Shown: positions 42,228 through 60,356 of the stretch, piece after piece | How positions within the stretch are numbered: position 1 is the stretch's first letter | Layout of the letters: each line of letters starts with the position of its first letter | IMG/VR virus record: IMGVR_UViG_3300046782_000096 | Coordinates: 1 to 63,557 of that record | Direction: 5' to 3' (one strand) | From: a virus | Lineage: Duplodnaviria; Caudoviricetes | Length of the DNA: 63,557 bases | Notes under the pieces: model-generated | Told to the model about the DNA's origin: nothing | Seen by the model: the letters and a program-made list of their open reading frames with translations, nothing else | The model's database searches: none | Made by a program: the position numbers and the translations under genes

Positions 42228-42439
42228 CGGCAATGCGGGCAACTGAGCGAAAGGCTCCCCGCCTCAGAACCGGGACGCGCTGTTAGCGTTTCGGTTGCTA
42301 CGGGCTGACAACGGGCATTGGATAAATCCCCCCCTCAGCGAAATTGGTACCGGCTCTTTTACAATTCCCAAGGGTAACCGCGACTTTAACGAATAGGCGT
42401 TAAGGCGCGTTTTTGCATTCCTAAACCGGAGAGTTTCAA

Positions 42440-43492: not shown

Positions 43493-43551
43493 CAGCATGA
43501 TTGGGGAGCATGGATGCTCCCACCTTTTAATCCTAAATCGGAGAGTGTTAA

Positions 43552-44397: not shown

Positions 44398-44445
44398 TTT
44401 AAGTTTTACTAAATTAATATGTAGAGCAAACTAGTTTGCTCTAGT

Positions 44446-45187: not shown

Positions 45188-45204
45188 TTTAACTGGAGAG
45201 TGCT

Positions 45205-45498: not shown

Positions 45499-45507
45499 GA
45501 GAATGCA

Positions 45508-45705
45508 ATGTTAGACAATTCTATCGAAGACGCAGATAGTCCAGAAGCTTTTATTAGGGCGCTGCGTAAACAAAGTGAGAAATGCATGGAAGCGAGTTTA
45601 GAACTAAGCGCAGCATGGCAGACCAGAACCGCAGGACATTTTTGGGTATTCGCCAGTCGAGAACTAGAACGCATGGCAATTAGACTGGAGAAACACGTAC
45701 CATAA
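45508..45705 (+). CDS. Small early protein
   Basis: AGGAG RBS. Confidence 0.7.
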   Translation: MLDNSIEDADSPEAFIRALRKQSEKCMEASLELSAAWQTRTAGHFWVFASRELERMAIRLEKHVP

Positions 45706-45733
45706 TTTAGTTTTGTGCCGTTGCACCCTCCGA

Positions 45734-45766
45734 AGCGCCGCTAACATAGGGCGCTCTTTTTGTTTT
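45734..45766 (+). terminator. Intrinsic terminator
   Basis: AGCGCC...GGCGCT then CTTTTTGTTTT. Confidence 0.6.
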
Positions 45767-45803
45767 AGATCGTTTTACCCCTAACGGGGTGGGTTTTGGT
45801 AGC

Positions 45804-45857
45804 TACGCGCCAGCGCCTAGCTACGCGACAGCGCTTTAGTTTAGTTACGCGCCAGCG
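45804..45857. repeat. TACGCGCCAGCG repeat cluster 2
   Basis: Copies at 45804, 45822 (one mismatch), 45846. Confidence 0.95.
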
Positions 45858-46218
45858 GATTTATAATCTATGTTAGCGCCGGTTTTACTGCGAAGTACCA
45901 TTGCGTATATGTGCGAAGCTAACCAATTTTGTCCCCTAGTGACTTTAAAAAGTGTAATTTTTCGGCTTAACATGACCCAAATTCAGAGAGAAAAAAACTA
46001 AGTGGGGGGACAGGGGGTCCAAAGTAGAATAATGTAATGAGTTAAGTACGTATATATACCCCCGCGTGTGTCTCCTTGTATATAGTCGTATCTAACCTAG
46101 CTTAACCTTAACATCTCTGTCCCCCCCTAAGCGTGTGAGTCTTCTGCTTTTGAACGGCGACACCTCGATAAGTTTAGAGGGGACTTTATAACTCCTTGTT
46201 TTTGTTTTACTGAAATGC

Positions 46219-46288
46219 TAAGTCATTGATATACAAATTTACCCCCCCGCAACAAGTCCTTGACCCCCCGCCCGGTCTGTGCTACGCT
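46219..46288 (+). promoter_or_regulatory. sigma70-like promoter with upstream IHF site
   Basis: TTGACC(46260)-N17-TACGCT; TAAGTCATTGATA (46219-46231) reads TATCAATGACTTA on minus, matching IHF consensus. Confidence 0.55.
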
Positions 46289-46328
46289 CGATCCAACGCC
46301 ATTCCTTGGGCGAAATAGGAGTTTTAAA

Positions 46329-46601
46329 ATGGCACTTAGATTTCACAAAATAGAAGTAGATAAAAGTCTGCCCATAAGCGAAGAGACTCAAAAGGGTATT
46401 AAATTAGAAAAAGCTATGCTTAAACACGTTTGGAAAATGTACGAAGCATTCCAATTAGTGGAGATGTTACCAATAAGCCAAAGCAATCCTTGGAATAGTG
46501 CAGTTCAGTATAGAGGATTGATCTTAAGAGTTAAAAAGCTTATAGATGACTTGGCAAACAGCGAAAGAGGCAAGATTCACTTCTCTGGAGAGACAAAATG
46601 A
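46329..46601 (+). CDS. Hypothetical early protein
   Basis: AGGAG RBS, ATG 46329. Confidence 0.7.
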   Translation: MALRFHKIEVDKSLPISEETQKGIKLEKAMLKHVWKMYEAFQLVEMLPISQSNPWNSAVQYRGLILRVKKLIDDLANSERGKIHFSGETK

Positions 46602-46837
46602 AAACAGCGGATATTAAAACTCTACGGATGGAAAAAGATTTTACTCCAGTTCAAGCGGTAGCAACAAAAGTCTCTAATCTTCTTTTGGACGAACTAAACC
46701 GCATAAATACAAGAAACACCGATTTTTATTATGATCGGTCAGAATATAAGCGCAGAGTAAAAGAGATTATTACACGGCATTTAATTAAGCTAAAGCAAAA
46801 ACATAATCTAAACTTCCAGATACCAAAAGAGGTTTAA
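46598..46837 (+). CDS. Hypothetical early protein
   Basis: GGAG RBS, ATGA overlap. Confidence 0.65.
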   Translation: MKTADIKTLRMEKDFTPVQAVATKVSNLLLDELNRINTRNTDFYYDRSEYKRRVKEIITRHLIKLKQKHNLNFQIPKEV

Positions 46838-46838
46838 A

Positions 46839-47015
46839 ATGATTACTACTGAAGAGATGGCAAAAGAACTAATTAAAGAAAATAAGAAAATGAAAGCGGC
46901 AATTAGCGCCACGCTGCGCCGGTCTGAAGGCAATCTTTATAGTACCGATCAATTAACCGGGGAAACGTTTTATAACATTTTAAACCAATCCATAGGCAAC
47001 ACTCATGGAAAATAA
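46839..47015 (+). CDS. 58-aa early protein (not in ORF track)
   Basis: GAGG RBS; MITTEEMAKELIK... Confidence 0.55.
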   Translation: MITTEEMAKELIKENKKMKAAISATLRRSEGNLYSTDQLTGETFYNILNQSIGNTHGK

Positions 47016-47229
47016 GCAGTTAGACCTATTCTTAAGACCACAAGATAAAAAAGAGCAATCTAAATTCCCAAGTGAGCCTTTAATCTCTTGCTCTTGCTGT
47101 CCGGCCAGATTACCTCGTTTTTACTTCGTCGCCACACAGTGGGGGCGCTTGTGTCCAGAGTGCTACAAGAGCTATAATGACCACCGGGACCAAGGGCGCT
47201 TGCCACGGGAGTTAAGAGACTATGACTGA
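47005..47229 (+). CDS. Small Zn-ribbon protein
   Basis: CSCC...CPEC. Confidence 0.6.
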   Translation: MENKQLDLFLRPQDKKEQSKFPSEPLISCSCCPARLPRFYFVATQWGRLCPECYKSYNDHRDQGRLPRELRDYD

Positions 47230-47389
47230 TTTAAAAGAGTATAGGTTTAGTTATGTAGTGGGAGGAGTGCGGCTTAGTACTACCATTGTGGCAAATAATA
47301 TGGAAGAAGCACACGAAAAGGGAAAGAATAAAGCTTTAGAACTGTTTTCAACCGCGCATGGGTTTTTAACTGAAGAGATGGGAGATTAA
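47222..47389 (+). CDS. 55-aa early protein (not in ORF track)
   Basis: MTDLKEYRFSYVVGG...; fills gap. Confidence 0.55.
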   Translation: MTDLKEYRFSYVVGGVRLSTTIVANNMEEAHEKGKNKALELFSTAHGFLTEEMGD

Positions 47390-47390
47390 A

Positions 47391-47591
47391 ATGTTAGATA
47401 ACGATGGAGGATTTGCAACCCCTGTTCCGCCGGTCCCAAGCCGCGAGGTGGTAGAGGCATACTTTAAGCGCGGCCCAAAGGATGGAATGTTTATGGTTTG
47501 GGTAGCGGAAGGTCATGCCATGCTCCGCACCCTTCTCGCGGAAGTCGAGCGGTTGACTAAACTGGTCGCCGAGCAAGGGAGATTAAAATGA
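47391..47591 (+). CDS. Hypothetical protein
   Basis: GGGAG RBS. Confidence 0.65.
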   Translation: MLDNDGGFATPVPPVPSREVVEAYFKRGPKDGMFMVWVAEGHAMLRTLLAEVERLTKLVAEQGRLK

Positions 47592-48019
47592 GTAGACCAG
47601 AGTTTGACGATAAGGATAGAGAGCTTCTAATTCAAAGAGAAGCTAAAAGAAGTCTTTTGATTGGTCCACAAGTGGGCGATTACGTTGTCTTTCCAGACAG
47701 TTTAGGTGGTGGAATAAGGCAATTCACCCATGACTGGGGCAAAGACATACAAACAACGGTTAGTACAATGCCAAGGAAAGATGGGACAATCCATCCCTGT
47801 GCCGGTGACGTTTCGTTTTACATTGACCGAGACGGAGAGTGTAATTTTAGTGGCAGTTTGGACAAAGCGATACCCAAAAACAAAATCTTTCCAAGCTATA
47901 ATGGAACTAACCAAGCTTTAAGATACGGCAATGTCTGGTTTTTCCACCATGACCAGCCGGGAGCGCACCGGGGCGTCCATGCAATGATTACCTTTAAGAT
48001 TTGGGAATACAAGCCATGA
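47588..48019 (+). CDS. Conserved hypothetical protein
   Basis: GP.VGD.V, FSGSL, WFFHHD..GA..GV motifs. Confidence 0.75.
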   Translation: MSRPEFDDKDRELLIQREAKRSLLIGPQVGDYVVFPDSLGGGIRQFTHDWGKDIQTTVSTMPRKDGTIHPCAGDVSFYIDRDGECNFSGSLDKAIPKNKIFPSYNGTNQALRYGNVWFFHHDQPGAHRGVHAMITFKIWEYKP

Positions 48020-48099
48020 GAGCCACACAAGCGCAATTAAAATACAGAACAAACATGGTCCAACAAGGCGTAAAACGGATTAGAATAAGGAAAGGCATA

Positions 48100-48387
48100 A
48101 TGAACGCGAGAATTAAAAAAGCAGAAGTAGATATTGCCCCTGAAATGAAAGGGCTTAAGGTCTTTTCTACTGAATACGAAAAACAGCTATTTTTAGCCGT
48201 GGAGAAATACCCCGGCGAGTATGCTTTTAAGGCTGATGTGGTCTTTAAAGTAGCGGAGCGTATGTGTGCTGCGTTTAAGAACAAAACGTATAATAAAGAT
48301 GGCAGAGCAGTAAAAGCAACATGTAAAGCTTTGAATATTCCTTGGACCTATACGGCAATTAACCGGTTCTTAAATGAAGGGGTGTAA
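48100..48387 (+). CDS. Conserved phage hypothetical protein (start uncertain)
   Basis: P.EY, NKDG.A.K.TCK.L.I..TY.AI..FL. Confidence 0.7.
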   Translation: MNARIKKAEVDIAPEMKGLKVFSTEYEKQLFLAVEKYPGEYAFKADVVFKVAERMCAAFKNKTYNKDGRAVKATCKALNIPWTYTAINRFLNEGV

Positions 48388-48388
48388 A

Positions 48389-48772
48389 ATGATAATGTCA
48401 GAAAAAGAGTTTAAAGTCAGGTTCCGTCCATCGGCCAAAGCGAACGGGGAATTGTTTAAATATGAAGAGATATTAGAAACACCGATAAACAAGCTTTGGT
48501 CAATTATGGAAGCGGGAGAGAAGGGAGAGCATTTAACAGCGTTGCCGGGATTAACTTACGGCATGGACAATATAGGTTTTGTCATAGCTGAAGTGCCGTG
48601 GAACGTTGGCGATGAAGTTATAGAAGCGTATTGGAAAGGACCAAAAGAGAATAAAACTACATACGAAAAAGTACTAGCCGGGGAATTAAATCTGCCTTAT
48701 CCATTCTGCCGGTATCCAGACAAGTGCGGTAAAACTGGGCGTTGTGAATCCGATCCCTGCTGTGCGGATTAA
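48389..48772 (+). CDS. Hypothetical protein with Cys-rich C-terminus
   Basis: CRYPDKC...GRC...PCC. Confidence 0.65.
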   Translation: MIMSEKEFKVRFRPSAKANGELFKYEEILETPINKLWSIMEAGEKGEHLTALPGLTYGMDNIGFVIAEVPWNVGDEVIEAYWKGPKENKTTYEKVLAGELNLPYPFCRYPDKCGKTGRCESDPCCAD

Positions 48773-48784
48773 AGAGATAATAAA

Positions 48785-48961
48785 ATGAACCCAACAGAGG
48801 TAAAAGCAGTAAAACAAACGATTGCTGGCTTTATGATGGTATGGGCTGGCTGTTGGGTGTTTATAGATGCTTTTAACAAGGACTATTTTAGTTCAATGGT
48901 GACTGCTGTACTGGGTGCGATCTGGACAACGTATTATTTCAAATTGAGAAAACAAAAATGA
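48785..48961 (+). CDS. Small two-TM membrane protein (not in ORF track)
   Basis: 58-aa hydrophobic ORF, ATGA overlap downstream. Confidence 0.55.
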   Translation: MNPTEVKAVKQTIAGFMMVWAGCWVFIDAFNKDYFSSMVTAVLGAIWTTYYFKLRKQK

Positions 48962-49164
48962 CAGATAAACTAAGAGAGCTAAGAATGAGAGAGCAGCAAT
49001 TAGCGGTGGCACGCAATTTAAGTGACGAAGAACTAAATGCACAGATACACCTAACCGATCCTAACCGTGATCCGAATCATAAATGCCTTTCCTGTTTTTA
49101 CTGCGCTTGTGTGGTAGTGTTAAAAGAACGCTGGTGGATACAACATAAAAAGGTGACAGAATGA
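48958..49164 (+). CDS. Hypothetical protein
   Basis: Coupled ORF, CLSCFYC. Confidence 0.6.
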   Translation: MTDKLRELRMREQQLAVARNLSDEELNAQIHLTDPNRDPNHKCLSCFYCACVVVLKERWWIQHKKVTE

Positions 49165-49489
49165 GAAGCATAAAAATAGACAGAAAAGCGATACGGTTTA
49201 TCTATACCGGTGGGCAAACTAACGCTCATTGGAACCTAATTACTTTCCATCTAAAAATGTTCTTGCTTCTGTGCAAAGATGGGCTTGTTAATATTTGGTA
49301 TAGTAAGAGGGTAAAATGAAAAACTATACGTATACGTATACAAATCACAAACTAAAAGATGACGATAAACAAAAGAAAATAGTAATAGAAGCTGATGGAA
49401 TAATAGAGGCAGATGAAATATACAAAGAAAAAACAGGCTTAGACCCTGTTAAATGTACCTATATTGGCTGTTCTGTTGGTGTAAAATGA
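49161..49489 (+). CDS. Two short coupled ORFs (49161-49319 and 49316-49489)
   Basis: Consecutive ATGA overlaps. Confidence 0.5.
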
Positions 49490-49977
49490 AGCGGTTTTAC
49501 TTCTTGAAATACCTTGGTCAAGTGTTTGCCCTTGAGCCTAAGACCCGAACCCTGCTGCAAGCCTCACCAGCGGGCGCAGGAGCGCCGCGCCTGACTATCG
49601 CGACCCTCGACACACTGGCGATCCCGCCGGGGCGCAGGCACACACGCAAAGCGGCTATCTGGGAGCTAACCCCGTTGCGGCTTTTAATAGAGTACGAATT
49701 AAATAAGAAAAGAAAGATAGGAGAACCACTAGAGGTAGTTTATCCTTATGTTACTCCATTGCCTAAACCATTGGTAGCGTTTTTATCCAGAGAAGAGTGG
49801 ACAGAGCAAAACCAAAAGGATTGGGATCAATATCAAAGAGATAAAGACAATAAGAAAAAGAAACAACAACGGGATAGGAACAGGCACCCACATCATCGCG
49901 TAATAAAACTAAGTAGTCAACAAGCTAGTTCGGCATTAGAAGGATATACCACTGTTTTAGATGAGGAGACAGAATAA
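49486..49977 (+). CDS. Hypothetical protein
   Basis: ATGA overlap at 49486. Confidence 0.6.
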   Translation: MKRFYFLKYLGQVFALEPKTRTLLQASPAGAGAPRLTIATLDTLAIPPGRRHTRKAAIWELTPLRLLIEYELNKKRKIGEPLEVVYPYVTPLPKPLVAFLSREEWTEQNQKDWDQYQRDKDNKKKKQQRDRNRHPHHRVIKLSSQQASSALEGYTTVLDEETE

Positions 49978-50168
49978 TGTGGAATAGATTAAGGCGTATA
50001 GTAATGCGGTGGGTATGGATGAAACAATATGAAAAGTCTTTAAATGATAGAGCAGAAGTAGAACAAATACTTTTAGATGTATCTAGGGGAGTGCGGCATA
50101 TGCTTACGCCTAAAGAGTGTCGCATGTTAGCAATGAAGCTAGGTGTACCTAAAGAGTGGAGAGACTAA
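49977..50168 (+). CDS. Hypothetical protein
   Basis: GAGGAG RBS. Confidence 0.65.
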   Translation: MWNRLRRIVMRWVWMKQYEKSLNDRAEVEQILLDVSRGVRHMLTPKECRMLAMKLGVPKEWRD

Positions 50169-50169
50169 A

Positions 50170-50370
50170 ATGCATTTTGAAATAAAGAAAGCTGGTATAA
50201 ATAGAGAGGGTAATAGTCGTTACTACTGGTTTCTTTTTGATGATGATAATCTATTTGTATGTTCTAGTCAAAGAGATTATAAAGAGCCAGAACTAGCTTA
50301 CCAAGCTTGTGAAGAATTAATAAGCACAATGCGGAACCCAAGCGAAGAAATTAAAATTCGGGTGACATAA
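50170..50370 (+). CDS. YegP/DUF1508-like small protein
   Basis: FEI.K......YYW.L...N...C.S...Y.....A...C pattern. Confidence 0.55.
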   Translation: MHFEIKKAGINREGNSRYYWFLFDDDNLFVCSSQRDYKEPELAYQACEELISTMRNPSEEIKIRVT

Positions 50371-50380
50371 GAAAAAGTGC

Positions 50381-50408
50381 TTGACGATGGTATTGGTTGT
50401 GCTATACT
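50381..50408 (+). promoter_or_regulatory. sigma70-like promoter
   Basis: TTGACG-N16-TATACT with TG. Confidence 0.7.
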
Positions 50409-50439
50409 GAGAGGGTAAGGCAGTCTTTTGGAGAGTGCT

Positions 50440-51186
50440 ATGCGGAGAAGTTTTAAAAGATCAAACGTTGTCCCGCAATGGGCAAGAGAAATAACAGACG
50501 CAGAAGCGGGAAGCGATGTTAAAATAATCTGGTACTCCTATAAAAATGGATACCGTGGACATGGGAAAGGTAGTCCTTGGGACAAAAGAATTACGTGTCA
50601 CGCAGATGATGATAGAACAAGAGCTAGTGTGTGTTTAGTTTTACATGAGATTACCCATGTAATAACTCCGATTGACGCAGTTAGGAATAGAGAAAGATGG
50701 GCATGGCATGGTCCAGAGTTTATTAAAAGAGTAATTAAACTGTACGAGAAGTATGGTGTATTAGAATATGCTTCTAAATGGGAACACTACGCGCGAATCC
50801 GTAGCGCAATAAAGAGGTATTTACTTATGAACAAATACAAAAATGCAGGTGGTGACAGTAATACGTATGTCCAAGTCAAATGCCCGGTATGTGGCTATAA
50901 GGATATCACACAAGATAAAGCTAACTGGACTTGCTCAGAGTGTGCAGATAAAAAAGAGATGAAAGCGAGGATAATTACAGGTGCAAAAGCAATACAAGAA
51001 AGTCCAGTTACTTCAGTAGCTTTAAAGAAAGCTTTGGACACATTAATAGAACCAGTAAAAGAAACAGGTTTACTAGCTGAGTATTACCGGATGACTGGAC
51101 GCAAGCCAGAAGAACCGGCAAAGGTAATAAAAGAGTATACAGTGAATGGACTCCAGTGTAAGATAGTGAGTACCAAGAGGAATTAA
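50440..51186 (+). CDS. SprT-like zinc metalloprotease domain plus Zn ribbon
   Basis: LHEITH, HGPEF, CPVC...CSEC; GGAGAG RBS. Confidence 0.75.
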   Translation: MRRSFKRSNVVPQWAREITDAEAGSDVKIIWYSYKNGYRGHGKGSPWDKRITCHADDDRTRASVCLVLHEITHVITPIDAVRNRERWAWHGPEFIKRVIKLYEKYGVLEYASKWEHYARIRSAIKRYLLMNKYKNAGGDSNTYVQVKCPVCGYKDITQDKANWTCSECADKKEMKARIITGAKAIQESPVTSVALKKALDTLIEPVKETGLLAEYYRMTGRKPEEPAKVIKEYTVNGLQCKIVSTKRN

Positions 51187-51199
51187 GAGGAGAGGTAGA

Positions 51200-51445
51200 A
51201 TGAGAATTAAAGTACCAGTCTGTGAAATGGAGATAGATGTAGAAGGAAAAACGATTTGGATTCATTCGCCGTTAGGTGCGACAGTGCTTAGAATTAAGTG
51301 CTGGAGTGGAATAGAACTAAGTAAGTGTACAGATAACCCAGTAACACATTTTGATTTAAATATAGGTTTGCCACCGGGGAATACTTACGGGGATCGTGGA
51401 GGTAGAGTTGGTATTTGTCTTGGTCCAGATGCAGTAGAGGAGTAA
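51200..51445 (+). CDS. Hypothetical protein
   Basis: TIWIHSP.GATVLRIKC; strong RBS. Confidence 0.7.
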   Translation: MRIKVPVCEMEIDVEGKTIWIHSPLGATVLRIKCWSGIELSKCTDNPVTHFDLNIGLPPGNTYGDRGGRVGICLGPDAVEE

Positions 51446-51450
51446 ACAAA

Positions 51451-51597
51451 ATGGCAATCAGAAACAGGCGTCGCGGATACATTGTCAGTACCAGAGCAAA
51501 AGACGACAGTGCGAAACCGAACAGAAAGCGGCACATGGGAAATAAACACAGAAAGAAAGCAAGAAACAAAGTTAAAATGAGAAGTCATAGACATTAA
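51451..51597 (+). CDS. Highly basic small protein
   Basis: GAGGAG RBS; R/K-rich. Confidence 0.5.
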   Translation: MAIRNRRRGYIVSTRAKDDSAKPNRKRHMGNKHRKKARNKVKMRSHRH

Positions 51598-51683
51598 TAG
51601 ACAGCGCGGCAGGAATGAAAGCTAACTGTTTTTGCCCCAGTTAGTGAGTAGTTCTTGCTGCGCCGTCATGGCTAGGAGGATTT

Positions 51684-51878
51684 ATGTTATCAGGTGTAGT
51701 AGTTTTAAGTGTATGGGTACTTGGTTTTGTTTTACTTCTATTGGTCCCAGTACATAAGCGCTGGAAGGATGATGGTGACTGTAGAGAGGTAGTGTGGCAT
51801 ACTTTAAGAATCCCGACAAATTTAGAGCGTTTTACTTTATGGCGTTCTAAGATTTATATTAAGGAGGATGTAAAGTGA
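51684..51878 (+). CDS. Small membrane-anchored protein
   Basis: AGGAGG RBS, N-terminal TM. Confidence 0.6.
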   Translation: MLSGVVVLSVWVLGFVLLLLVPVHKRWKDDGDCREVVWHTLRIPTNLERFTLWRSKIYIKEDVK

Positions 51879-52051
51879 AAGTGAGGCGTGAAGACCGGGT
51901 AGACTTTGACCAGACGGCCCTAGCTGTACAGGCGATGAAGGAACGCCAGAGGCAACGGGCGCGGCAGAGGGTGTTGCTGGTGATCGGTACGGTGTCCCTG
52001 CTGGTTGCCGTGCTGATCGCAGTAGGGGTGAAAATATTTTTCTAAAAGGTG

Positions 52052-52080
52052 TTGACAACCGGAAAAGATAGGCGTAGAGT
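52052..52080 (+). promoter_or_regulatory. sigma70-like promoter
   Basis: TTGACA-N17-TAGAGT. Confidence 0.7.
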
Positions 52081-52140
52081 CAGCACTGAGCTAGGGGAAG
52101 ACCTTAGCCGCTACCCCTAAACAAACATAAAGGAAAGACA

Positions 52141-52548
52141 ATGGAATTTCAGATTTTCTCAAAGGTACCAGCACCCCCGCAGAAGCGTGGTCCCGGCTTT
52201 GGTGTACGTGAAAGCAAGTACCCGTTCGATAAGCTGGACGTAGACGACGTACTGGTGATCCCCGGTACGACCAGCAAGAATTTTGGTCCTACTGTTCGCG
52301 CAGCGGAGCAACGTCTAAAGGGTTTTTACTTTACTGTCCGCACCGGTCCAGTAATGGTCAAGGGTGAAGACGGTTCCGATATCGAAGTGGTCCCGGCTGG
52401 TGCCGTTGGCGTATGGCGCATTGCCGTGAAGGCTCCGCGTAAGCCGCAGAAGGCGCGCAGTGCCGAGGATAAGGCCGCTGCGACGGCGAAGGCGAAGGCG
52501 ACACGGGAAGCGAATAAGGCCGCTAAGCTGGCTGCGAAAGCCGGGTAA
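52141..52548 (+). CDS. Putative DNA-binding protein with Lys/Ala histone-like tail
   Basis: SKYPF..L.V.D and GVWR motifs; KA-rich C-terminus; GC-richer codons. Confidence 0.7.
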   Translation: MEFQIFSKVPAPPQKRGPGFGVRESKYPFDKLDVDDVLVIPGTTSKNFGPTVRAAEQRLKGFYFTVRTGPVMVKGEDGSDIEVVPAGAVGVWRIAVKAPRKPQKARSAEDKAAATAKAKATREANKAAKLAAKAG

Positions 52549-52554
52549 TAGATT

Positions 52555-52778
52555 TAAAACAAGGATGGTACTAGACTACAGGGATGGGCAAACTAAGTTA
52601 TGAATAGAGGAAAGTAGAATAGCAAGACGTGACGAAACGCCTTGTGAGTGGAGACTAAAATTAGCCTCTCATTCTACAAAAAACGGGGCAAATCAGGACA
52701 CCCTTGCGAGGGAGCTAAGTCCGCCGCACGCTGTAAGCGGCCCGGTAGTGGAAGTAATTCATTAGGAGATAAAACCCT
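52555..52778 (+). ncRNA. Candidate structured RNA / 5' leader
   Basis: Multiple complementary segments (see findings). Confidence 0.5.
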
Positions 52779-52931
52779 ATGAAGACTGAAATTGAAATTG
52801 CTATTAGAGCATTGCTAGTTAAGATGACCGCAAGTGTAACAACGGAAGAGGCTTTAAAGTTTACACAATCAATGTTAAATTTAGCTCATACAGCCGTTAC
52901 ATTAGCTGCGCTAAAGGACAAGCAAGAGTAA
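52779..52931 (+). CDS. 50-aa protein (not in ORF track)
   Basis: AGGAG RBS; MKTEIEIAIRALL...EALKFTQSMLNLAH. Confidence 0.65.
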   Translation: MKTEIEIAIRALLVKMTASVTTEEALKFTQSMLNLAHTAVTLAALKDKQE

Positions 52932-52968
52932 GGAGTTTTTACTACCAAAACACCGGCAAAAAAAGGGC

Positions 52969-52997
52969 TTGACAAGGCTTCCCGGTAGGCGTATACA
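52969..52997 (+). promoter_or_regulatory. sigma70-like promoter of sRNA
   Basis: TTGACA-N17-TATACA preceded by an A-tract. Confidence 0.7.
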
Positions 52998-53002
52998 GGC
53001 GG

Positions 53003-53108
53003 ATTCCCCGGCTCAGGATCACTCTCCGATTAAGGCCGTCGAGCGCTCCGTCTCCCCTGCGCTCCGGTCTGTGCAAGTCAAAGCACAACCCTTAGCCGGG
53101 TTTTTTTT
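53003..53108 (+). ncRNA. Stand-alone ~105-nt small RNA with anti-SD loops
   Basis: Own promoter; closing stem CCCGGCT.AGG/CCT.AGCCGGG; three internal hairpins; T8 tail; no ORF. Confidence 0.7.
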
Positions 53109-53169
53109 ACTAAGTTTCTAAACTAGACTCACCTAACATAATCCTAGACAACCAAAAGAGAGAAATAAA

Positions 53170-53340
53170 ATGAGCAATGCGATGACGGAATTTAAATCCT
53201 ATACCGATGCAGATAAAGTAGCTTTGCGTGAACTGACTGCTTACGCAAAAGAGAAGACTGGTAAAGACGTGAAGACCGGGGATATGATCTGTGCATTGAC
53301 ACCGGGATTGGAGACTCCAAAAGAGTTGATGGGCATCTAA
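53170..53340 (+). CDS. 56-aa protein (not in ORF track)
   Basis: MSNAMTEFKSYTDADK... Confidence 0.55.
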   Translation: MSNAMTEFKSYTDADKVALRELTAYAKEKTGKDVKTGDMICALTPGLETPKELMGI

Positions 53341-53388
53341 TCTAAACCACAACTAAAGGTAGGTGATCCTAAATCTGTTCCAAAGCGA

Positions 53389-53422
53389 AGCCCCGGCGCT
53401 TAATCCGGGGCTGTTTTATTTT
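53389..53422 (+). terminator. Hairpin/terminator
   Basis: AGCCCCGG...CCGGGGCT then GTTTTATTTT. Confidence 0.6.
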
Positions 53423-53434
53423 GGAGGGTTGCAA

Positions 53435-55114
53435 ATGAAAATGAAGAGAGTGTTAGCGGGGGGCTTACTACTGCTTGCTAGTAGTTTAGCTTTCGCAGTA
53501 CACAACGAAGGGGTATTAGAGTTAGATGGTAACGCTGTTAATGATCCTGCGGTACCGGGGATCGACTGGCAAGATGTTTTTCTTACTCCCGCTGTAGGTC
53601 AGAGTTTTATTAATGACCTTTTTAATTCAAGTGCTGATAATGCTTTTATCGGTGGCGGGTCCAAAGATGTACGAGATATTCCTTTATGGGGACAGACTTT
53701 AACCGGGTCACCAGACAAGGATGATTTAGAACACGCAATGGCTGCTTTATTTACCGTTAATGGTGATGAAGTAGTTTATTTTGCTGCGGATCGTGATAGC
53801 AATAACGGAGACAGTGCGATTGGTTTCTGGTTCTTTCGTTCAGCAGTAAAAGTAAATGGTAGTGGTGGGTTTGATGGAGTCCATACCGTAGGGGACATTT
53901 TAGTTACGTCCGATTTTCTACAGGGTGGCGGCGCTTCTGTAATCAATGTGTTTAAGTGGGTGGGTGGTGCTAATCCATTATCACTTTTGGCCCATTCTGA
54001 AATTAAGAATGGCGTACCGATTGGCGGGACCGTTGATCCTGTAACGGGATTGTTCTGTATTAGCAGCGATATTGCTTGTGCAGTAACAAACAAAGCCGCT
54101 ACACCGGCACCTTGGTCTTATACGTTCAAAGGATCGGCTCCCCCTAATACATTCCCACAAGGTACATTCTTTGAAGGTGGAGTTAATCTAACGCAGCTTT
54201 TAGGTGGGTCTGAGTGCTTTAGTAACTTTCTTGTAATGACCCGTACCTCTGCTAGTACAACGGCACAGCTAAAAGATTTTGTTTTAGGACCGTTTAAGAA
54301 TTGTTCTATCGCAGTGTCTAAAACTTGTAACGTAACTCGTTTAACCACTGCCTCAGACAATACGTCTCTTCTGTACTCTGTGGACTATTCTGGAACGGTA
54401 ACAAATACGTCTGATGGTTCTTTACCGATTGGTACGATTATCACTGTGCGGGATGATGTTGGAACACCGGACCCGGCGACTAGTGACGACCAAAGTCAAT
54501 CATTTACTTTAGCTGCGCCATTAGCTAAGAATGGAACACAAGCTTTTACTGGTAGTTTCTTTAGCAATGACAATCCGCCACATAATACTGTCTATGCAAC
54601 AGCGGCATTTAGTGGCAATTCGCTAACAGCTAACTTTAGTATTGACTGTTCTCCGCTTTCCTTAAGTCCAGCTTTATCAGTGACCAAGGTTTGCGGTACA
54701 CCGGCTGGTGCGCCGGGAGTAGAGTTAGTCCTTAGTGGTGGTAAATTAGTTACACAAGTAAATGTTTCTGGTACTGTATGCAATACTAGCACTACGGCAG
54801 GTTTAAATCTATCGGTAACTGTAGCCGATGACGCAGTAGGTATTGCTAATCCGCCCGATCCAACGCAATTGTTTAATGGTACGTTAGTACAAGGTGCTGT
54901 TGGTACACCGGGGCGTTGCGCTGATTACACGTACAGCTATCAGCCTACAGCAGGCGACGGTAACACGACACCGGCAAGCGTGGCAATGTTTAGCGATACG
55001 GTAACGGCAATGGGTAGTAGTCCTGCGCTGCCAGCGGCACAACAGCCTACAGCTACGGCAACGGCACACTGTGCAGTATGTCCATGCAATGGGTTGAATT
55101 GTCCTACTCCGTAA
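53435..55114 (+). CDS. Exported multi-domain beta-rich protein of cellular type
   Basis: Signal peptide MKMKRVLAGGLLLLASSLAFA; ELDGNA, GGGSKD, PDKDD, GFWFF, FFEGG.NLT; two Ig-like repeats (VSKTC/VTKVC...GTV.NT); GGAGG RBS. Confidence 0.85.
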   Translation: MKMKRVLAGGLLLLASSLAFAVHNEGVLELDGNAVNDPAVPGIDWQDVFLTPAVGQSFINDLFNSSADNAFIGGGSKDVRDIPLWGQTLTGSPDKDDLEHAMAALFTVNGDEVVYFAADRDSNNGDSAIGFWFFRSAVKVNGSGGFDGVHTVGDILVTSDFLQGGGASVINVFKWVGGANPLSLLAHSEIKNGVPIGGTVDPVTGLFCISSDIACAVTNKAATPAPWSYTFKGSAPPNTFPQGTFFEGGVNLTQLLGGSECFSNFLVMTRTSASTTAQLKDFVLGPFKNCSIAVSKTCNVTRLTTASDNTSLLYSVDYSGTVTNTSDGSLPIGTIITVRDDVGTPDPATSDDQSQSFTLAAPLAKNGTQAFTGSFFSNDNPPHNTVYATAAFSGNSLTANFSIDCSPLSLSPALSVTKVCGTPAGAPGVELVLSGGKLVTQVNVSGTVCNTSTTAGLNLSVTVADDAVGIANPPDPTQLFNGTLVQGAVGTPGRCADYTYSYQPTAGDGNTTPASVAMFSDTVTAMGSSPALPAAQQPTATATAHCAVCPCNGLNCPTP

Positions 55115-55164
55115 TAGTTCTAGAACCGGGGCGCAAGGATGCGCCCACTAGGAGTTAAATCTAA

Positions 55165-55368
55165 ATGACTAAGCCTTTTGCGTTCTTTAATAGAGATAAC
55201 GGGTCACTTAGATTTGAAACTTTGCGTGAATTAAGAAATGCTCGTATAGGTGAGCCAAGAGAGATATCGCTTTATACTCAGGAACAGGTAGATACATTAC
55301 TGAATGAAATTAAAGGACTAAAGGAACTAGCGGGTACTAATAATGTAAAACGCTTACCCTTTGACTAG
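55165..55368 (+). CDS. Hypothetical protein
   Basis: AGGAG RBS. Confidence 0.65.
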   Translation: MTKPFAFFNRDNGSLRFETLRELRNARIGEPREISLYTQEQVDTLLNEIKGLKELAGTNNVKRLPFD

Positions 55369-55378
55369 GAGTAAACTA

Positions 55379-55540
55379 ATGATTATTGCACTTAGTTTGT
55401 TAGTATGTATAATTGGTCTTCTAATGTATGCTTTATCAGCTAATCCTAAGCTGGTCCGTGTAGGTGAAATTATGTTCGCTGCTGGTCTATTAGCGTTCCT
55501 TATAAACGCTAGAGAAATTTTACAGGTAATAGGACATTAA
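55379..55540 (+). CDS. 53-aa two-TM membrane protein (not in ORF track)
   Basis: MIIALSLLVCIIGLLMYALSANPKLVRVGEIMFAAGLLAFL; AGGAG RBS. Confidence 0.7.
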   Translation: MIIALSLLVCIIGLLMYALSANPKLVRVGEIMFAAGLLAFLINAREILQVIGH

Positions 55541-55561
55541 CAAGAAAGGACCATCCCACTT

Positions 55562-57466
55562 ATGATTCCTATATTTCTAGATTTTGAAACACATTACTCG
55601 AAAGAGTATTCGCTTAAGCGAATGTCAAATCAAGAGTATATATACGACCCTCGATTTAAAACACATGGTTGCGGTGTGGCTATTGGCCGCGACTCTCCCC
55701 GCTGGTTTAGCGGGCCTACCTTAATAGCGCTTTTACAGCGTGCCGTGCCGGGTAATGTAGTCGTCTGCCATCATGCAGCGTTCGACGTATCTATCTTAGC
55801 ATGGCGCTTTAAACTCCGTCCTCGTTTTATAATTGACACACTGGGTATGTCGCGTGCTTTAATTGGCGAGCGCTTACGATCCCATAGTTTAGATTCAATT
55901 GCTCATTATCTACTTGGCAAAGAGAAAGGACATTATTTAGCTTCTACTATGGGAATTAAAGACTTACGGAAAGATGAAGAGGCGAAATTAGCGGAGTACT
56001 GTCTAGACGATGTTAGATTATGTCGAGAGATTTTTTATGCCTTAATTCCTTACATGCCTAAGCCAGAACTACCGGTAATAGATATGGTAGCACGCATGTA
56101 TACGGAACCTAAGCTACTTTTAGATCAAGAACTATTAATGCAATATCACTCAGAAGTAGTAGCCAAAAGACTGTGTGCATTAGATGAAGCAGGTATAGAA
56201 AATCCAACGGAAGTTAGGTCTAATCCGCAGTTTGCAGCGGCGCTACAGCGGCTAGGGGTCATACCCCCTATGAAGACCAGCCCCACGACCGGGAAGCTCA
56301 CCTATGCCTTTGCCAAGACGGATGAAGGGCTACAGGCGCTAGAGGATCACCCCGACGAACGGGTACAGGCACTGGTTGCCGCTAGACTGGAGAATAGAAG
56401 TACTTTAGCAGAAACAAGAGCAGAGAGTTTTATTACTGCTAGTCGATATGGTGAGTTACCTATTGGTTATAATTATAGTGGCGCACAAACTACACATAGA
56501 TTCTCCGGTGCTTATGGTATGAATTTACAGAACCTACCTAGAGGGGGAGCGTTACGTAAATCTATTATGGCACCAGAAGGCTATGAACTAGTAGTAGGTG
56601 ACCAAAGTCAAATTGAACTTAGAATTACTTTTGCACTGGCAATACATCTATATTTAAAACGATATCCAGATAATGGGTACGAACATTTACCAGAAGTGGA
56701 AGCATTACAAATACTAGCTGGTGGTGGCGATCTTTATGCTACGTTTGGTAGTTACATTTACCAGACAGAGATAACAAAAGAAACTCATCCTTATGAACGT
56801 CAAGTTAGTAAGAGCGCAGTTTTAGGTCTAGGTTTTGGAATGGGTAAAGATAAGTTTATCGCCTATTGTAGACAGCAGAATATTGAAATGGACGATGGAC
56901 TAGCAGCATATATAGTAAAATTTTATAGAGAAAAATACAGCTTAGTTCCGCAGTTGTGGAAATACCTTAATGACTGTTTTAAAGAGTTCTGTGCTTTTAA
57001 TGACCCAATACAGCTTTTCAATGAACCTAATATTACAATCGAATTTACTAGAACGCCACGTAGTGTAATAGCCGGTGCTGTTACTGCATGGGCTAACGAT
57101 GTATCCATAGGACTGCCGGGACAACTAAGAGTAAAATATCCTCAATTAATGTTCCATCCCGGTAGTCGCCAGTTTACTTATGAAAGAGCCAATGGAACGA
57201 CACACCTTTTCGCTGGCAAGTTCGTTGAAAATCTGGTACAGTACCTAGCGCGGCAGATCATCATGGAGCAGACCGTAAGAGTTAATCGCCGGTATCCTGT
57301 TGTGATGAGTACCCATGATGAGATAGCAGCGCTTCCAGAGAAAAGTAAAACAGAACAGTGTAAAGTTGAAATGAAAGAAATAATGGAAGAAAGAATGTCG
57401 TGGTGGCCGAGTTTACCTTTAAATGCAGATATACATAGCGCAATCAGATACGGAGAAGCAAAGTGA
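55562..57466 (+). CDS. polA: DNA polymerase family A with 3'-5' exonuclease
   Basis: LDFET ExoI, H.A.FD ExoII, YC.DD ExoIII, NLQNLPR, motif A DQSQIELR, motif B RQVSKSAVLGLGFG, motif C HDE. Confidence 0.95.
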   Translation: MIPIFLDFETHYSKEYSLKRMSNQEYIYDPRFKTHGCGVAIGRDSPRWFSGPTLIALLQRAVPGNVVVCHHAAFDVSILAWRFKLRPRFIIDTLGMSRALIGERLRSHSLDSIAHYLLGKEKGHYLASTMGIKDLRKDEEAKLAEYCLDDVRLCREIFYALIPYMPKPELPVIDMVARMYTEPKLLLDQELLMQYHSEVVAKRLCALDEAGIENPTEVRSNPQFAAALQRLGVIPPMKTSPTTGKLTYAFAKTDEGLQALEDHPDERVQALVAARLENRSTLAETRAESFITASRYGELPIGYNYSGAQTTHRFSGAYGMNLQNLPRGGALRKSIMAPEGYELVVGDQSQIELRITFALAIHLYLKRYPDNGYEHLPEVEALQILAGGGDLYATFGSYIYQTEITKETHPYERQVSKSAVLGLGFGMGKDKFIAYCRQQNIEMDDGLAAYIVKFYREKYSLVPQLWKYLNDCFKEFCAFNDPIQLFNEPNITIEFTRTPRSVIAGAVTAWANDVSIGLPGQLRVKYPQLMFHPGSRQFTYERANGTTHLFAGKFVENLVQYLARQIIMEQTVRVNRRYPVVMSTHDEIAALPEKSKTEQCKVEMKEIMEERMSWWPSLPLNADIHSAIRYGEAK

Positions 57467-57759
57467 ATTATATTAAAGAGTTTCCTTTTGTACAAATGAA
57501 TGGTTCTATTAAAGTTTATAATGAACAACCGTGGTGGATGGGGTTGCCGATGCAGAAGCATGAGTACCGGGTTACTCCTCCGTCTAAGAGAAAAACTAAA
57601 GCGGAAAAGATTAGTGATACCATGACTAAGATCGGGCGCATGAACCGGGATACTCATATTACAGCGCTTTTGAGTCAAGGTATTGTTAGGCGCAAGCGTG
57701 AGACTGGCAGGGTTACTATTCGGGATGTAATAGATAAACAAGACAAAAGCTGGACTTAA
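57463..57759 (+). CDS. Hypothetical protein
   Basis: GTGA overlap, GGAG RBS. Confidence 0.6.
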   Translation: MNYIKEFPFVQMNGSIKVYNEQPWWMGLPMQKHEYRVTPPSKRKTKAEKISDTMTKIGRMNRDTHITALLSQGIVRRKRETGRVTIRDVIDKQDKSWT

Positions 57760-57765
57760 GGAAAA

Positions 57766-57900
57766 GTGAAAAAGATTGTATTCATGGCGTTGTTTTTTGT
57801 ACTGATAATGGCAGGATTAGCTTACTGGGACTGGCTTGTATACGGTGAATGTATACAAGCTGGTAATCCTTGGTGGTACTGTGCGAGGGTAGCCTCATAA
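57766..57900 (+). CDS. 44-aa membrane peptide (not in ORF track)
   Basis: MKKIVFMALFFVLIMAGLAYWDW...C...WWYC. Confidence 0.55.
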   Translation: MKKIVFMALFFVLIMAGLAYWDWLVYGECIQAGNPWWYCARVAS

Positions 57901-58595
57901 TGCTAGATGCAGATGGAGGGTTTGCAAAACCCGTAATTTATACTTGGTCTTTAATAGAACAGTATGAGACTTGCCCTTTTAAAGCTTATCACCAGAATGT
58001 GATAAAAGACATTCCTTGGGTAGAAACAGTAGAAAATAAATGGGGCAATGAAGTACATAGCGCACTAGAACGTTGTGCTAGATTAAGAGTATTACCAGAA
58101 GATAGATTTAAAGAATTAAGCTATATAGCCGCAGCGTTTTTATCTGCAACTGGAGAGCTACGACCGGAAGTAAAACTAGGAGTAGATAGAAGGTTACACG
58201 CTTGTGACTTTTACGATCCAAATGTTTTTATACGAGGTAACAACGCAGACTTAATTATAGATTACGATACATGGGCTGTGGTGTGGGACTACAAGACTGG
58301 TAAAAAGAAAACCGGATCAAAACAATTAATGCTTACTGCTCTTATGGTCTTCGCCAAGTTTCCACGTTTAGAAAAATTGATATGCTCTTTTATTTGGACA
58401 CAAGCTAAGACACTAAAACCAGAAAAAGAAATTTACTATAGACACCAGATACCCGAAATGTGGAAACGCTTTCTAGTCATAATAGGAGAGATTGAACATT
58501 GTAATACAGCGAATATCTGGTACAAAAGACAGAATGGGCTTTGCCGTGCCTATTGCCCCGTAACCGGGTGTGAATACAACGGGAAACACAAATGA
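57900..58595 (+). CDS. PD-(D/E)XK (Cas4/RecB-like) exonuclease
   Basis: YETCP, WG..VH..LE, ADL, DYKTGK, QL, C..YCPV..C. Confidence 0.9.
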   Translation: MLDADGGFAKPVIYTWSLIEQYETCPFKAYHQNVIKDIPWVETVENKWGNEVHSALERCARLRVLPEDRFKELSYIAAAFLSATGELRPEVKLGVDRRLHACDFYDPNVFIRGNNADLIIDYDTWAVVWDYKTGKKKTGSKQLMLTALMVFAKFPRLEKLICSFIWTQAKTLKPEKEIYYRHQIPEMWKRFLVIIGEIEHCNTANIWYKRQNGLCRAYCPVTGCEYNGKHK

Positions 58596-58801
58596 GATGG
58601 AAAAACAAAATAATTCCAAAAGAGGGAGATGTTAGAGAAAGAAATGAGTTTCTTCTATTTCCAAAAACTATTAATGGAGAAACCCGTTGGCTTGAGTTTG
58701 CTATGTATCGCCAAGTTTTAAAACTGCAAAAGGGTGATATGAGAGATATGGTAGATTCAGATTTATGGTATTGGAAAAATTTAGATTGGATAACGCCATG
58801 A
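58592..58801 (+). CDS. Hypothetical protein
   Basis: FLLFPKTINGETRWLE motif. Confidence 0.65.
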   Translation: MRWKNKIIPKEGDVRERNEFLLFPKTINGETRWLEFAMYRQVLKLQKGDMRDMVDSDLWYWKNLDWITP

Positions 58802-59166
58802 TAAATTTAAATGCTCTTAATTACGCTCGAAACTCAGAATTTGAAAAGAGGGTTTATGGCGTTACTGGCAATGCGGGTAATGGTGTATTCGTATTTAAGT
58901 CTTGTGTGGATGGTGATCCTTTGCGTGTTATTGCTAGCGATGGCGACGGATGGGATCATGTTAGTGTGTCACGCATTGACCGGATACCCACGTATGAAGA
59001 GATGGAACAAATAGCATCTTTAATTTTTCAACCGGATGAAACAGCAGTACAATACCATGTTCCTAAAAGCGAACATGTAAATTACCATCCTTTTTGTTTA
59101 CATTGGTGGCGTCCAACAAGAGACTATCTGCCAAAACCACCTTTTATTATGGTAGCGCCAAAATGA
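58798..59166 (+). CDS. Conserved phage protein (WDHVSVS family)
   Basis: GWDHVSVS...PTYEEM; Q.H.P....VN.HP.CLH.W. Confidence 0.8.
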   Translation: MINLNALNYARNSEFEKRVYGVTGNAGNGVFVFKSCVDGDPLRVIASDGDGWDHVSVSRIDRIPTYEEMEQIASLIFQPDETAVQYHVPKSEHVNYHPFCLHWWRPTRDYLPKPPFIMVAPK

Positions 59167-59462
59167 CAACGCCAGAAGGTAAAGTTAAAACAAAAGTAAA
59201 AGAAATTCTGGAGAGATATAAAATCTATTACTTTATGCCAGTCAAGCATCTATATGGCAGGGCTGGGATAGGAGATTTCATTTGTTGTGTTAACAGCAAG
59301 TTTCTAAGTATAGAAACTAAATCAAAAGATGGCACGGTAACAGAATTACAGGATGAAGATTTTAAAAACGTAAGGAAGTCAAAGGGGCTTAAACTGCTCA
59401 TTTGCAGCGAAGCTGATCTTAAGTATCTCGAAACTATAATTCAACAAATAATGGAGAGCTAA
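59163..59462 (+). CDS. VRR-NUC nuclease (Holliday junction resolvase-like)
   Basis: TPEGKVK, G..GI.D, F..IETK, T.LQ. Confidence 0.88.
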   Translation: MTTPEGKVKTKVKEILERYKIYYFMPVKHLYGRAGIGDFICCVNSKFLSIETKSKDGTVTELQDEDFKNVRKSKGLKLLICSEADLKYLETIIQQIMES

Positions 59463-59463
59463 A

Positions 59464-59895
59464 ATGACCGCTCTTAAGCAAGAAACTAAGCGCACCGCAG
59501 AAGCAATATTTGACGTGATTAGGGATAAAGAAAGTCCTGTAAGTGCAGGAGATATAGCAAGAGAATTTAATCTTGGCAATGGGCGACACGCAGACCTTGC
59601 CCAAGCTTTAAAGCTTTTAGTGAAACAAGATAAAGTAGAAAAGTTTGGCGAAGGTAGAGGTAGTAAATATCTTATAGTAAGAGATGCTAAACCCCTTACT
59701 AAAGCAGAAGCGCAAGAACAATTAAACGTCCCTCCGGTGCCAGAAGGCAAGAAAGGTAAAGCTGTACCGGTCCATATGGTGGAGGTACCAAGGGCTACGC
59801 TTAAGGTGCTGGTGAAAGCTGTGATGCAGTGCTGTACTCCAATGGATAACACGTTACTGCGTGCTACGATGCAATGCATGGAGAAATTAATCTAA
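59464..59895 (+). CDS. Winged-helix protein
   Basis: S..DIAREF...L..L.....V.K.G.GRG..Y. Confidence 0.65.
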   Translation: MTALKQETKRTAEAIFDVIRDKESPVSAGDIAREFNLGNGRHADLAQALKLLVKQDKVEKFGEGRGSKYLIVRDAKPLTKAEAQEQLNVPPVPEGKKGKAVPVHMVEVPRATLKVLVKAVMQCCTPMDNTLLRATMQCMEKLI

Positions 59896-60353
59896 TGAAC
59901 GCTACTTTAGAATTTGAAATTAATAAAGCAATTGAAAAATCTCTACCGTCTGAATTAGGTAATGCTTTAAAGAAACGGCTTGAAGATGCGGATAAATTTG
60001 AAACAGACTATAAAGGAATAATAGTAAAGTACGATATGGCGTTAAAAGAAAAAGGAGAATTAAAAGACCAACTAGAAAAAGCGCAAAGAGAAATAGCCAA
60101 ACATGCTGTTTTAGAAGCAAGGGAAAATGCAGTTAGGATAAGGGAAGAGAAAGCGGCTGTTACAGAATTGGAAACTAAGTTAAAAGCGGAAGAGAAGATA
60201 AGTGCCGCACTTGGTGGTGCTTTGGCTGGACTAGTACGCAATGCCGAGTATCGGACTCAAGTGTTTACTAGTGTACCTTTACCTATTGCACCGGGAGGTT
60301 ATGGTACACAAACCGGACAAGGTTCTGAAACCCGCGAACGCAAACAGGAGTAA
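59895..60353 (+). CDS. Coiled-coil protein
   Basis: TAATG coupling. Confidence 0.7.
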   Translation: MNATLEFEINKAIEKSLPSELGNALKKRLEDADKFETDYKGIIVKYDMALKEKGELKDQLEKAQREIAKHAVLEARENAVRIREEKAAVTELETKLKAEEKISAALGGALAGLVRNAEYRTQVFTSVPLPIAPGGYGTQTGQGSETRERKQE

Positions 60354-60356
60354 GCC

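Follow-up and report, generated by a model that had tools for sequence, protein, structure and literature searches.

The window analysed here, the complete 63,557-bp virus record IMGVR_UViG_3300046782_000096, occurs in soil and rhizosphere DNA runs and carries, at positions 52969 to 53108 of its plus strand, a promoter-like site followed by a predicted non-coding RNA. Among the 23 runs listed, none is an RNA run that contains it. Judging from its sequence, this element is probably a stand-alone phage small RNA (sRNA) of the anti-Shine-Dalgarno (anti-SD) kind. Two of its hairpin loops are CU-rich and accessible, one segment resembles the 3' tail of 16S ribosomal RNA (rRNA), and the same segment is complementary to the ribosome-binding site (RBS) of a phage gene. 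As to function, we tentatively favour, with rather less than even confidence, a trans-acting anti-SD RNA whose targeting is broad or biased towards GGAGAG. The parts of the element, in nucleotides (nt) of the window, are given below.

52969..52997, plus strand: promoter-like site with -35 hexamer TTGACA (52969-52974), 17-nt spacer and -10 hexamer TATACA (52992-52997); predicted start of transcription at about 53003-53005.
53003..53108, plus strand: predicted non-coding RNA of about 100-106 nt, a four-way junction closed by its 5' and 3' ends.
53007..53017, plus strand: 5' strand of the closing stem (CCCGGCU, bulged C, AGG), which pairs with 53090-53100 in the predicted structure.
53018..53030, plus strand: hairpin 1, with a stem AUC/GAU of 3 base pairs (bp) and the loop ACUCUCC (53021-53027) containing an anti-SD motif.
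53033..53070, plus strand: hairpin 2, with a 6+6-bp stem and the loop UCCGUCUCCCCU (53047-53058) containing two more CUCC motifs.
53071..53086, plus strand: hairpin 3, with a GUGC/GCAC stem and the loop AAGUCAAA.
53090..53108, plus strand: 3' strand of the closing stem (CCU, U, AGCCGGG) followed by U8, an end resembling an intrinsic terminator.
52052..52080, plus strand: sibling promoter-like site, TTGACAA-N10-TAGGCGTAGAGT, upstream of gene 52141, from which transcripts would read into the element.

The element sits in a 238-nt gap between genes 52779-52931 and 53170-53340. Its promoter-like site, found just as the initial annotation of this DNA had described it, combines a perfect -35 hexamer with a 17-nt spacer, and the predicted transcription start lies 2-4 nt ahead of the closing stem at 53007; the 3' end is marked by the terminator-like stem and the T8 run (53101-53108). 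The arrangement TTGACAA-N10-TAGGCGTA, at identical spacing, is common to this site and the only other plus-strand TTGACA site, at 52052, which argues for a real, shared promoter type. The plus strand as the transcribed one is supported by one G-U pair, by the T-run and by the orientation of all neighbouring genes. The element had also been described as free of open reading frames (ORFs). This stands in so far as none is credible and the RNA contains no AUG, but two mechanical ORFs with TTG starts, 52969-53121 on the plus and 52942-53088 on the minus strand, do overlap it, the former beginning at the -35 hexamer without an SD sequence before it.

The fold of the 106-nt RNA is exceptional, with a minimum free energy (MFE) of -41.2 kcal/mol, a z-score of -4.72, none of 200 shuffles as stable and a centroid structure nearly the same as the MFE structure; the closing stem, the three hairpins and the T8 tail all agree with the earlier description. 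The GC content of the RNA is 0.58 against about 0.40 for the genome. Loop 1 (ACUCUCC) and loop 2, both correctly given before, are each unpaired with a probability of 0.98 in the ensemble, and the range for loops 1-3 is 0.98-1.0. CUCC occurs four times (RNA nt 22, 44, 50 and 60) against 1.36 expected (P=0.02, 5000 shuffles), and three of the four copies sit in or at loops. An alternative local 5-bp hairpin is available at 53087-53102. The reverse strand folds less exceptionally (z -3.41), and in a 241-nt read-through context other pairings replace the junction, with a z-score of only -0.97. The difference between -4.72 for the transcript and -0.97 in the read-through context indicates that the neat fold belongs to the promoter-defined transcript.

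Several other identities were considered for the element and rejected. A protein-coding reading fails because the only ORFs across it are mechanical ones with TTG starts and AUG is absent from the RNA, and a minus-strand transcript because no minus-strand terminator-like site is listed there, the neighbours are all on the plus strand and the fold is weaker. The Rfam search that had been proposed as a check was run and gave no match to a known non-antisense class: at gathering thresholds only a transfer RNA (tRNA) was found in the whole window and no family at the element, while with E up to 10 over 52850-53250 only three sub-threshold matches appeared, mir-540, SNORD45 and RF02278. The last is the only bacterial sRNA family among them; its covariance model gave 13.7 bits on the element against a gathering score of 50 (E 3.7), and the element is not a member. 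A known Rfam class (release 15) was thus rejected, there being no match at gathering score or at E below 0.01. A tRNA or transfer-messenger RNA is likewise rejected, as ARAGORN and Rfam find only tRNA-Leu (6327-6411) and the junction has no T-loop or CCA features. Packaging RNAs of the phi29 type are defined by two mutually complementary loops that serve ring formation; here loops 1 and 2 are pyrimidine-rich, loop 3 is AAGUCAAA and no complementary loop pair is present, so this class was discarded too. A replication origin at the element was rejected because DnaA-box-like repeats and iterons lie elsewhere, at 41.77-42.03 kb.

A resemblance to the 3' tail of 16S rRNA is a new observation beyond the initial annotation.

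53016..53032, plus strand: GGAUCACUCUCCGAUUA, look-alike of the 16S rRNA 3' tail (RNA nt 14-30), alignment score 20.5.

All 14 bases of the Escherichia coli rrsA tail occur in order within RNA nt 14-30, with a 1-nt and a 2-nt insertion, and CUCC is exposed. The score of 20.5 was reached by none of 5000 dinucleotide shuffles, a result tempered by the resemblance having been spotted after the fact, and only one other site in the phage genome scores as high, namely the complement of an orphan, very long SD-like sequence at 53356-53369. The phage copy departs from the ribosomal tail by an extra U and an extra GA; it lies within a hairpin instead of forming a free 3' end, and it does not belong to a ribosome. 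The resemblance explains the complementarity of the RNA to SD sequences in general. There is a difference in fit: GGAGAGUG pairs perfectly with the RNA, and with the 16S tail only via a bulge. When the loop-1 segment (nt 13-31) was treated as a free oligonucleotide, it paired better than the 16S tail by at least 3 kcal/mol on 19 of the 87 translation start regions of the phage (10 of 26 in the early block, 9 of 61 elsewhere), a comparison which favours the longer oligonucleotide (19 nt vs 14 nt).

The orphan SD-like sequence deserves a description of its own. No other sequence in the genome complements the 16S 3' tail as well as AAGGTAGGTGATCC, at 53356-53369 on the plus strand, which covers 13 of 14 bases and has one inserted T. 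It stands past the stop of gene 53170-53340 and ahead of the ATG at 53435, lacks a start codon at SD spacing, and is followed by a terminator-like hairpin at 53389-53412. It also pairs over 8 nt with nt 13-20 of the sRNA, and it may be a ribosome standby site.

Candidate target sites for loop 1 were found on the start regions of four genes.

43531..43551, plus strand: best candidate target, SD region of the gene 43552-43722 (56 amino acids, aa), with 12 contiguous pairs (43536-43547).
42427..42434, plus strand: candidate target CGGAGAGT, RBS of the DUF932 gene (42440-43492), 8-nt complement.
45195..45202, plus strand: candidate target GGAGAGTG, RBS of gene 45205-45498, 8-nt complement.
50430..50437, plus strand: candidate target GGAGAGTG, RBS of gene 50440-51186, 8-nt complement.

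These complements had been reported by the initial annotation and were all recovered. CACTCTCCGATT (53020-53031) is the exact reverse complement of AATCGGAGAGTG (43536-43547), an identity for which 0 occurrences were expected, and the site ends 4 nt ahead of the ATG at 43552. Three more pairs follow past a 1x1 mismatch, and across two 1x1 mismatches the pairing extends to 15-16. Among the 87 start regions (those of 43552 and 50440 being set by hand) this one ranks first, with a duplex energy of -24.0 and an accessibility-corrected total of -11.1 kcal/mol, and the target region is predicted to be largely unstructured. With regard to the genes themselves, the DUF932 label is supported (E 7.2e-41), while the label 'SprT-like' previously given to gene 50440-51186 found no support in Pfam.

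The four RBSs are partly copies of one another. The segments 42419-42447 and 43531-43559 form a 29-nt repeat, 90% identical, which spans the SD sequence and the first codons (Met-Ala-His) of DUF932 and of gene 43552, and genes 45205 and 50440 have an identical 14-nt RBS, TGGAGAGTGCTATG (45194-45207 and 50429-50442). Owing to this reuse, the RBS matches are not independent of each other. GGAGAGTG has five plus-strand copies, two of which lie inside genes and encode Gly-Glu-Cys.

On comparison with chance, the 12-mer match to the 43552 RBS is exact yet statistically weak: 53 of 3000 dinucleotide-shuffled RNAs were exactly complementary, over 12 nt or more, to one or other of the 87 start regions (P=0.018), and this genome also has 11-mer complements at sites other than RBSs. 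The loop-1 complements of 8 nt or more on start regions, four in all, fall in the plus-strand block at 42.4-51.5 kb, which holds 26 of the 87 start regions.

A number of results weigh against the reading of the element as an anti-SD RNA. Matches of 8 nt are at chance (5 start regions vs 2.79 expected, P=0.17), as are the numbers of start regions with 7-, 8- and 9-nt complements (P=0.49, 0.17 and 0.48). The best total energy was matched by 55 of 90 shuffled RNAs and the duplex energy by 67 of 90, and four start regions lie at or below -8 kcal/mol vs a shuffle mean of 7.4. GGAGAGTG was counted 28 times in 2.6 Mb from 159 distant-relative loci, in which a covariance model of the RNA found no copy; 12 of the 28 (8 distinct) precede an ATG at RBS spacing, so that GGAGAGTG is an ordinary SD form. 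In the promoter-like site, the -10 hexamer is without the usual final T (its sixth base is A), which is why a promoter scanner did not list the site. From the comparative work described below there are three further points: a sister phage has retained the RNA with a changed RBS before DUF932 and a different gene following it; the 233 nt without differences in which the RNA lies rank only 13th by length among such stretches of the 14.5-kb sister alignment; and no diverged homologue was found in any search of phage, plasmid, metagenome and bacterial or archaeal loci.

The proposal made earlier is to be divided in view of these figures. An anti-SD RNA is consistent with the discrete-looking unit, with the accessible CU-rich loops and with the 43552 RBS being the best of 87, but specificity for the phage's own early RBSs is not borne out, as counts of 7-9-nt complements are at chance and shuffled RNAs pair as stably. 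The energy comparison that was suggested as a check thus puts 43552 first without raising its energy above the shuffles. The caveat already attached to the proposal, that targeting may be generic, is the better reading; GGAGAGT does stand before genes 740 and 36282.

The only other record with the RNA is the sister phage G001 (60,230 bp), a mosaic relative with about 97-99% identity in the replication genes, 69-96% in the structural genes and 74% in the DUF932 region. Its copy of the RNA is 100% identical and its promoter-like site has a single difference, in the spacer (52980 T>C), whereas the flanks of the RNA differ: the preceding 100 nt have 6 changes and 53214-53262 has 12. An identical RNA amid differing flanks is weak evidence of constraint. 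Among the contigs of four DNA runs aligned to 51000-55000, that of run X20 (52757-53490) has 27 differences, and all 26 listed lie outside 52981-53213; since its differences within 52880-53404 are the same as those of the sister phage, the X20 contig is not an independent case. Just upstream of gene 52779, the sister phage and the contigs of runs X3 and X20 have a 142-nt segment in place of 16 nt at 52740-52757.

Covariation between loops and RBSs in relatives, which had been put forward as a further check, was not seen: the loops are identical in the sister phage, its DUF932 RBS is changed and its 60,230-nt contig has no 12-mer site (part of the early region lies beyond the contig end), the best loop complements being 9-10 nt. 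The DUF932 RBS reads ATCGGAGAC there vs CCGGAGAGT here (GGAGAG to GGAGAC), with 8 complementary bases kept and shifted by two positions; each allele thus retains an uninterrupted complementary run of 8 bases, which is CGGAGAGT in the window and ATCGGAGA in the sister. Loop-1 complements of the sister phage also fall on two minus-strand sites followed by start codons.

The covariance model (R1) had as input the RNA of the window and that of the sister phage; as these two are identical, it is effectively a single-sequence model of limited reach. Beyond the two identical copies it found nothing in 81 sources (813,513 bases, comprising the window, 79 polymerase-relative loci and the unrelated locus L003, obtained in a search with a 135-aa neighbour protein) or in 18 loop-pattern loci. 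No copy was detected in five complete distant relatives, in 80 metagenome polymerase loci (557,156 bases, among them a 75%-identical polymerase contig with only 986 nt upstream of the gene), with filters off in three loci with a 71% homologue of the 559-aa neighbour protein, or in 30 bacterial or archaeal loop-pattern loci (211,719 bases). A blastn search of 52900-53200 and a megablast of 45000-63557 against phage records gave no match, nor did blastn against plasmids or a stricter loop pattern in metagenome contigs. As no diverged homologue was found, covariation is available for neither the structure nor the seed. Amongst the 30 genome matches to the two-loop pattern, nine are of a Verrucomicrobiota type (L197, L200, L203, L207, L208, L217, L220, L224 and L225). 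Several of these have the same, shorter fixed gap (11 nt), R1 has no match there, and in one that was inspected the surroundings are GC-rich, unlike the phage RNA, which suggests that these matches are a conserved sequence of their own, unrelated to the phage RNA.

In the broad or GGAGAG-biased trans-acting reading, which we favour, transcription from the sigma-70-like promoter would begin just ahead of the closing stem, and the RNA would fold into the four-way junction and end at the closing stem and U8. Its two pyrimidine-rich loops would show three CUCC anti-SD motifs, with hairpin 1 and its flanks copying the 16S tail, and could pair with the SD regions of phage or host messenger RNAs (mRNAs), compete with the 30S subunit and lower translation. 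The best fit would be to GGAGAG(UG)-type sites, bound by the 16S tail only with a bulge and used on 43552, DUF932, 45205 and 50440. It is somewhat unlikely that the RNA acts instead in cis, as an elaborate terminator or attenuator, a 5' leader or a 3' end, with the CU-rich loops and the RBS match being incidental. The element would then partition transcription between the 52141/52779 genes and the genes from 53170 to the polymerase, and would be an ordinary one if it is only a terminator or leader. Its place within a co-directional gene row would suit such a role, as would the upstream promoter at 52052, which would transcribe into it, the similar CCCCGGC stem of the terminator-like hairpin further on (53389-53412) and the targeting statistics, which are mostly at chance. 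No strong promoter-like site was seen between U8 and gene 53170, where the scanner lists none, and the downstream genes would accordingly need read-through of the U8 terminator. A plain terminator, however, needs neither a 76-nt insert of three hairpins nor a promoter 6 nt upstream, the junction is not the predicted fold in the read-through context, and the CUCC enrichment (P=0.02) and the likeness to the 16S tail (0/5000) are left unexplained.

The narrower idea of a dedicated antisense silencer of the phage's own early genes, mainly 43552 together with DUF932, 45205 and 50440, once middle transcription starts, appears unlikely. It draws on the 12 contiguous pairs extending to 15-16 over the 43552 SD sequence, on the P value of 0.018 for the exact match, on the confinement of the four loop-1 complements to the 42.4-51.5 kb block and on the retention of 8 complementary bases by both diverged DUF932 alleles; RBS-blocking phage antisense RNAs are also known, c4 of P1/P7 and sar of P22 being described in a review (PMC12197685). 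Yet the sister phage with the identical RNA has another gene after DUF932, no 12-mer site in its contig, and loop-1 complements also on the two minus-strand sites, while 11-mers to non-RBS sites arise by chance in the genome and the energy and 8-mer tests are at chance. We consider it quite unlikely that the RNA is a slightly altered phage copy of the ribosomal anti-SD tail which works as an 'orthogonal' anti-SD specific for the GGAGAGUG variant. One extra U would give perfect pairing with GGAGAGUG, for which the 16S tail needs a bulged A, and the accumulated RNA would out-compete ribosomes at 43552, DUF932, 45205 and 50440 while canonical SDs are spared; if true, this would be a sequence-coded switch for a phage to silence one gene set. 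Very unlikely in our estimate is a protein-binding decoy or sponge, either a 16S-tail mimic occupying a factor or nuclease or a U-tail titrating an RNA chaperone. The tail likeness does include GGAUCAC, outside the usual SD-pairing core, and the fold is compact and stable with a U8 end, but no candidate binding protein was identified, GGAUC in the RNA is mostly base-paired rather than a free 3' end, and there are no GGA-type loops of the CsrA-sponge kind.

The carrier of the element is a podovirus-like, lytic-type soil phage, with its genes in two blocks.

7.6-41.5 kb, minus strand: structural genes for a portal/adaptor protein, an internal virion protein, tail fibre proteins and the terminase large subunit.
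About 42.4 kb through the record end to 7.6 kb, plus strand: block with a T7-type DNA polymerase (55562-57466), a primase/helicase and a helicase.

No RNA polymerase was identified among 30 window proteins scanned against PHROGs or Pfam, and host-type promoters are therefore to be expected. The only host lead comes from look-alikes of the 559-aa secreted protein encoded next to the RNA (53435-55114), which are mostly from Pseudomonadota and are bacterial DUF7507-type surface proteins. Homologues of this protein, 71% identical, are found in high-GC phage contigs (loci L194-L196), where they come after a collagen-like tail-fibre gene, and its gene appears to be mobile cargo common to unrelated phages. 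Among the structural genes, the 2508-aa protein at 7596-15122 (minus strand) is without a PHROG match, its sole domain being a C-terminal LPD38 (E 1.2e-10).

Repeats were also noted in non-coding parts of the window. Within an 890-nt non-coding divergent region, 41768-42031 holds iteron-like repeats (the GTTTAGCCGTCTAAACGTCTA family, five copies) and three TGTGGATAA DnaA-box-like sites, and is probably a replication origin or control region. Directly upstream of the DUF932 RBS, a terminator-like hairpin with a T-run (42384-42415) ends a GC-rich leader of about 200 nt; the sister phage has a different leader before DUF932, sharing AGCGAAAGGCT. Two non-coding gaps of the early block, 44435-44552 and 45793-45867, contain repeat units of about 22-44 nt with TACGCGCCAGCG, which could be operators or phage-specific promoters. 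The hairpin GGGAGCATGGATGCTCCC has three intergenic copies, 83-100% identical, at 43504-43521, 43892-43909 and 55129-55146, and these could be terminators or processing sites.

An established kind of bacterial sRNA has two or three hairpins with CU-rich anti-SD loops that stay unpaired, as exemplified in the literature by AbcR and NfeR1 (PMC7143759) and by RF02278 (PMC5688073). NfeR1 (alpha-r14) and AbcR1/2 (alpha-r15) of rhizobia are described as trans-acting sRNAs of about 80-120 nt that pair with the start regions of many mRNAs, and NfeR1 as having a sigma-70 promoter (PMC7143759). Like the element, they are reported to have three stem-loops whose loops leave CU-rich anti-SD motifs unpaired. 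Unlike it, they are chromosomal rather than phage-borne and form conserved families, whereas no Rfam model matched the element, and only in the phage element are the hairpins enclosed by a long closing stem that doubles as terminator. RF02278, a toxic small RNA of Betaproteobacteria for which growth inhibition upon expression in E. coli is reported, is likewise described as a short RNA with CU-rich unpaired stretches and a terminator hairpin (PMC5688073). It is a double hairpin of about 60 nt, as against the four-way junction of 106 nt.

As regards phages, the RegB endoribonuclease of T4 silences phage early mRNAs through GGAG Shine-Dalgarno sequences. The outcome is the same as that proposed here; RegB, in contrast, is a protein nuclease that cleaves, and the phage RNA would mask the site. 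The c4 RNA directs two loops against two sites at an RBS and is excised by RNase P. The nearest phage precedents are c4 and sar, being phage-encoded small structured RNAs which, according to a 2025 review, pair with the mRNA of a phage gene and block its expression (PMC12197685). The phage sRNAs tabulated in that review are mostly from temperate phages or prophages, and none of those tabulated is described there with anti-SD loop motifs, while its supplementary table may list more (PMC12197685). Both c4 and sar belong to immunity circuits of temperate phages and act on neighbouring transcripts, whereas the phage element lies about 9.5 kb from its best match. If the favoured reading is true, a lytic-type soil phage whose anti-SD RNA has several loops and a copy of the 16S tail would add RNA-only translation reprogramming to these systems, together with a simple link between an SD variant and its silencer.

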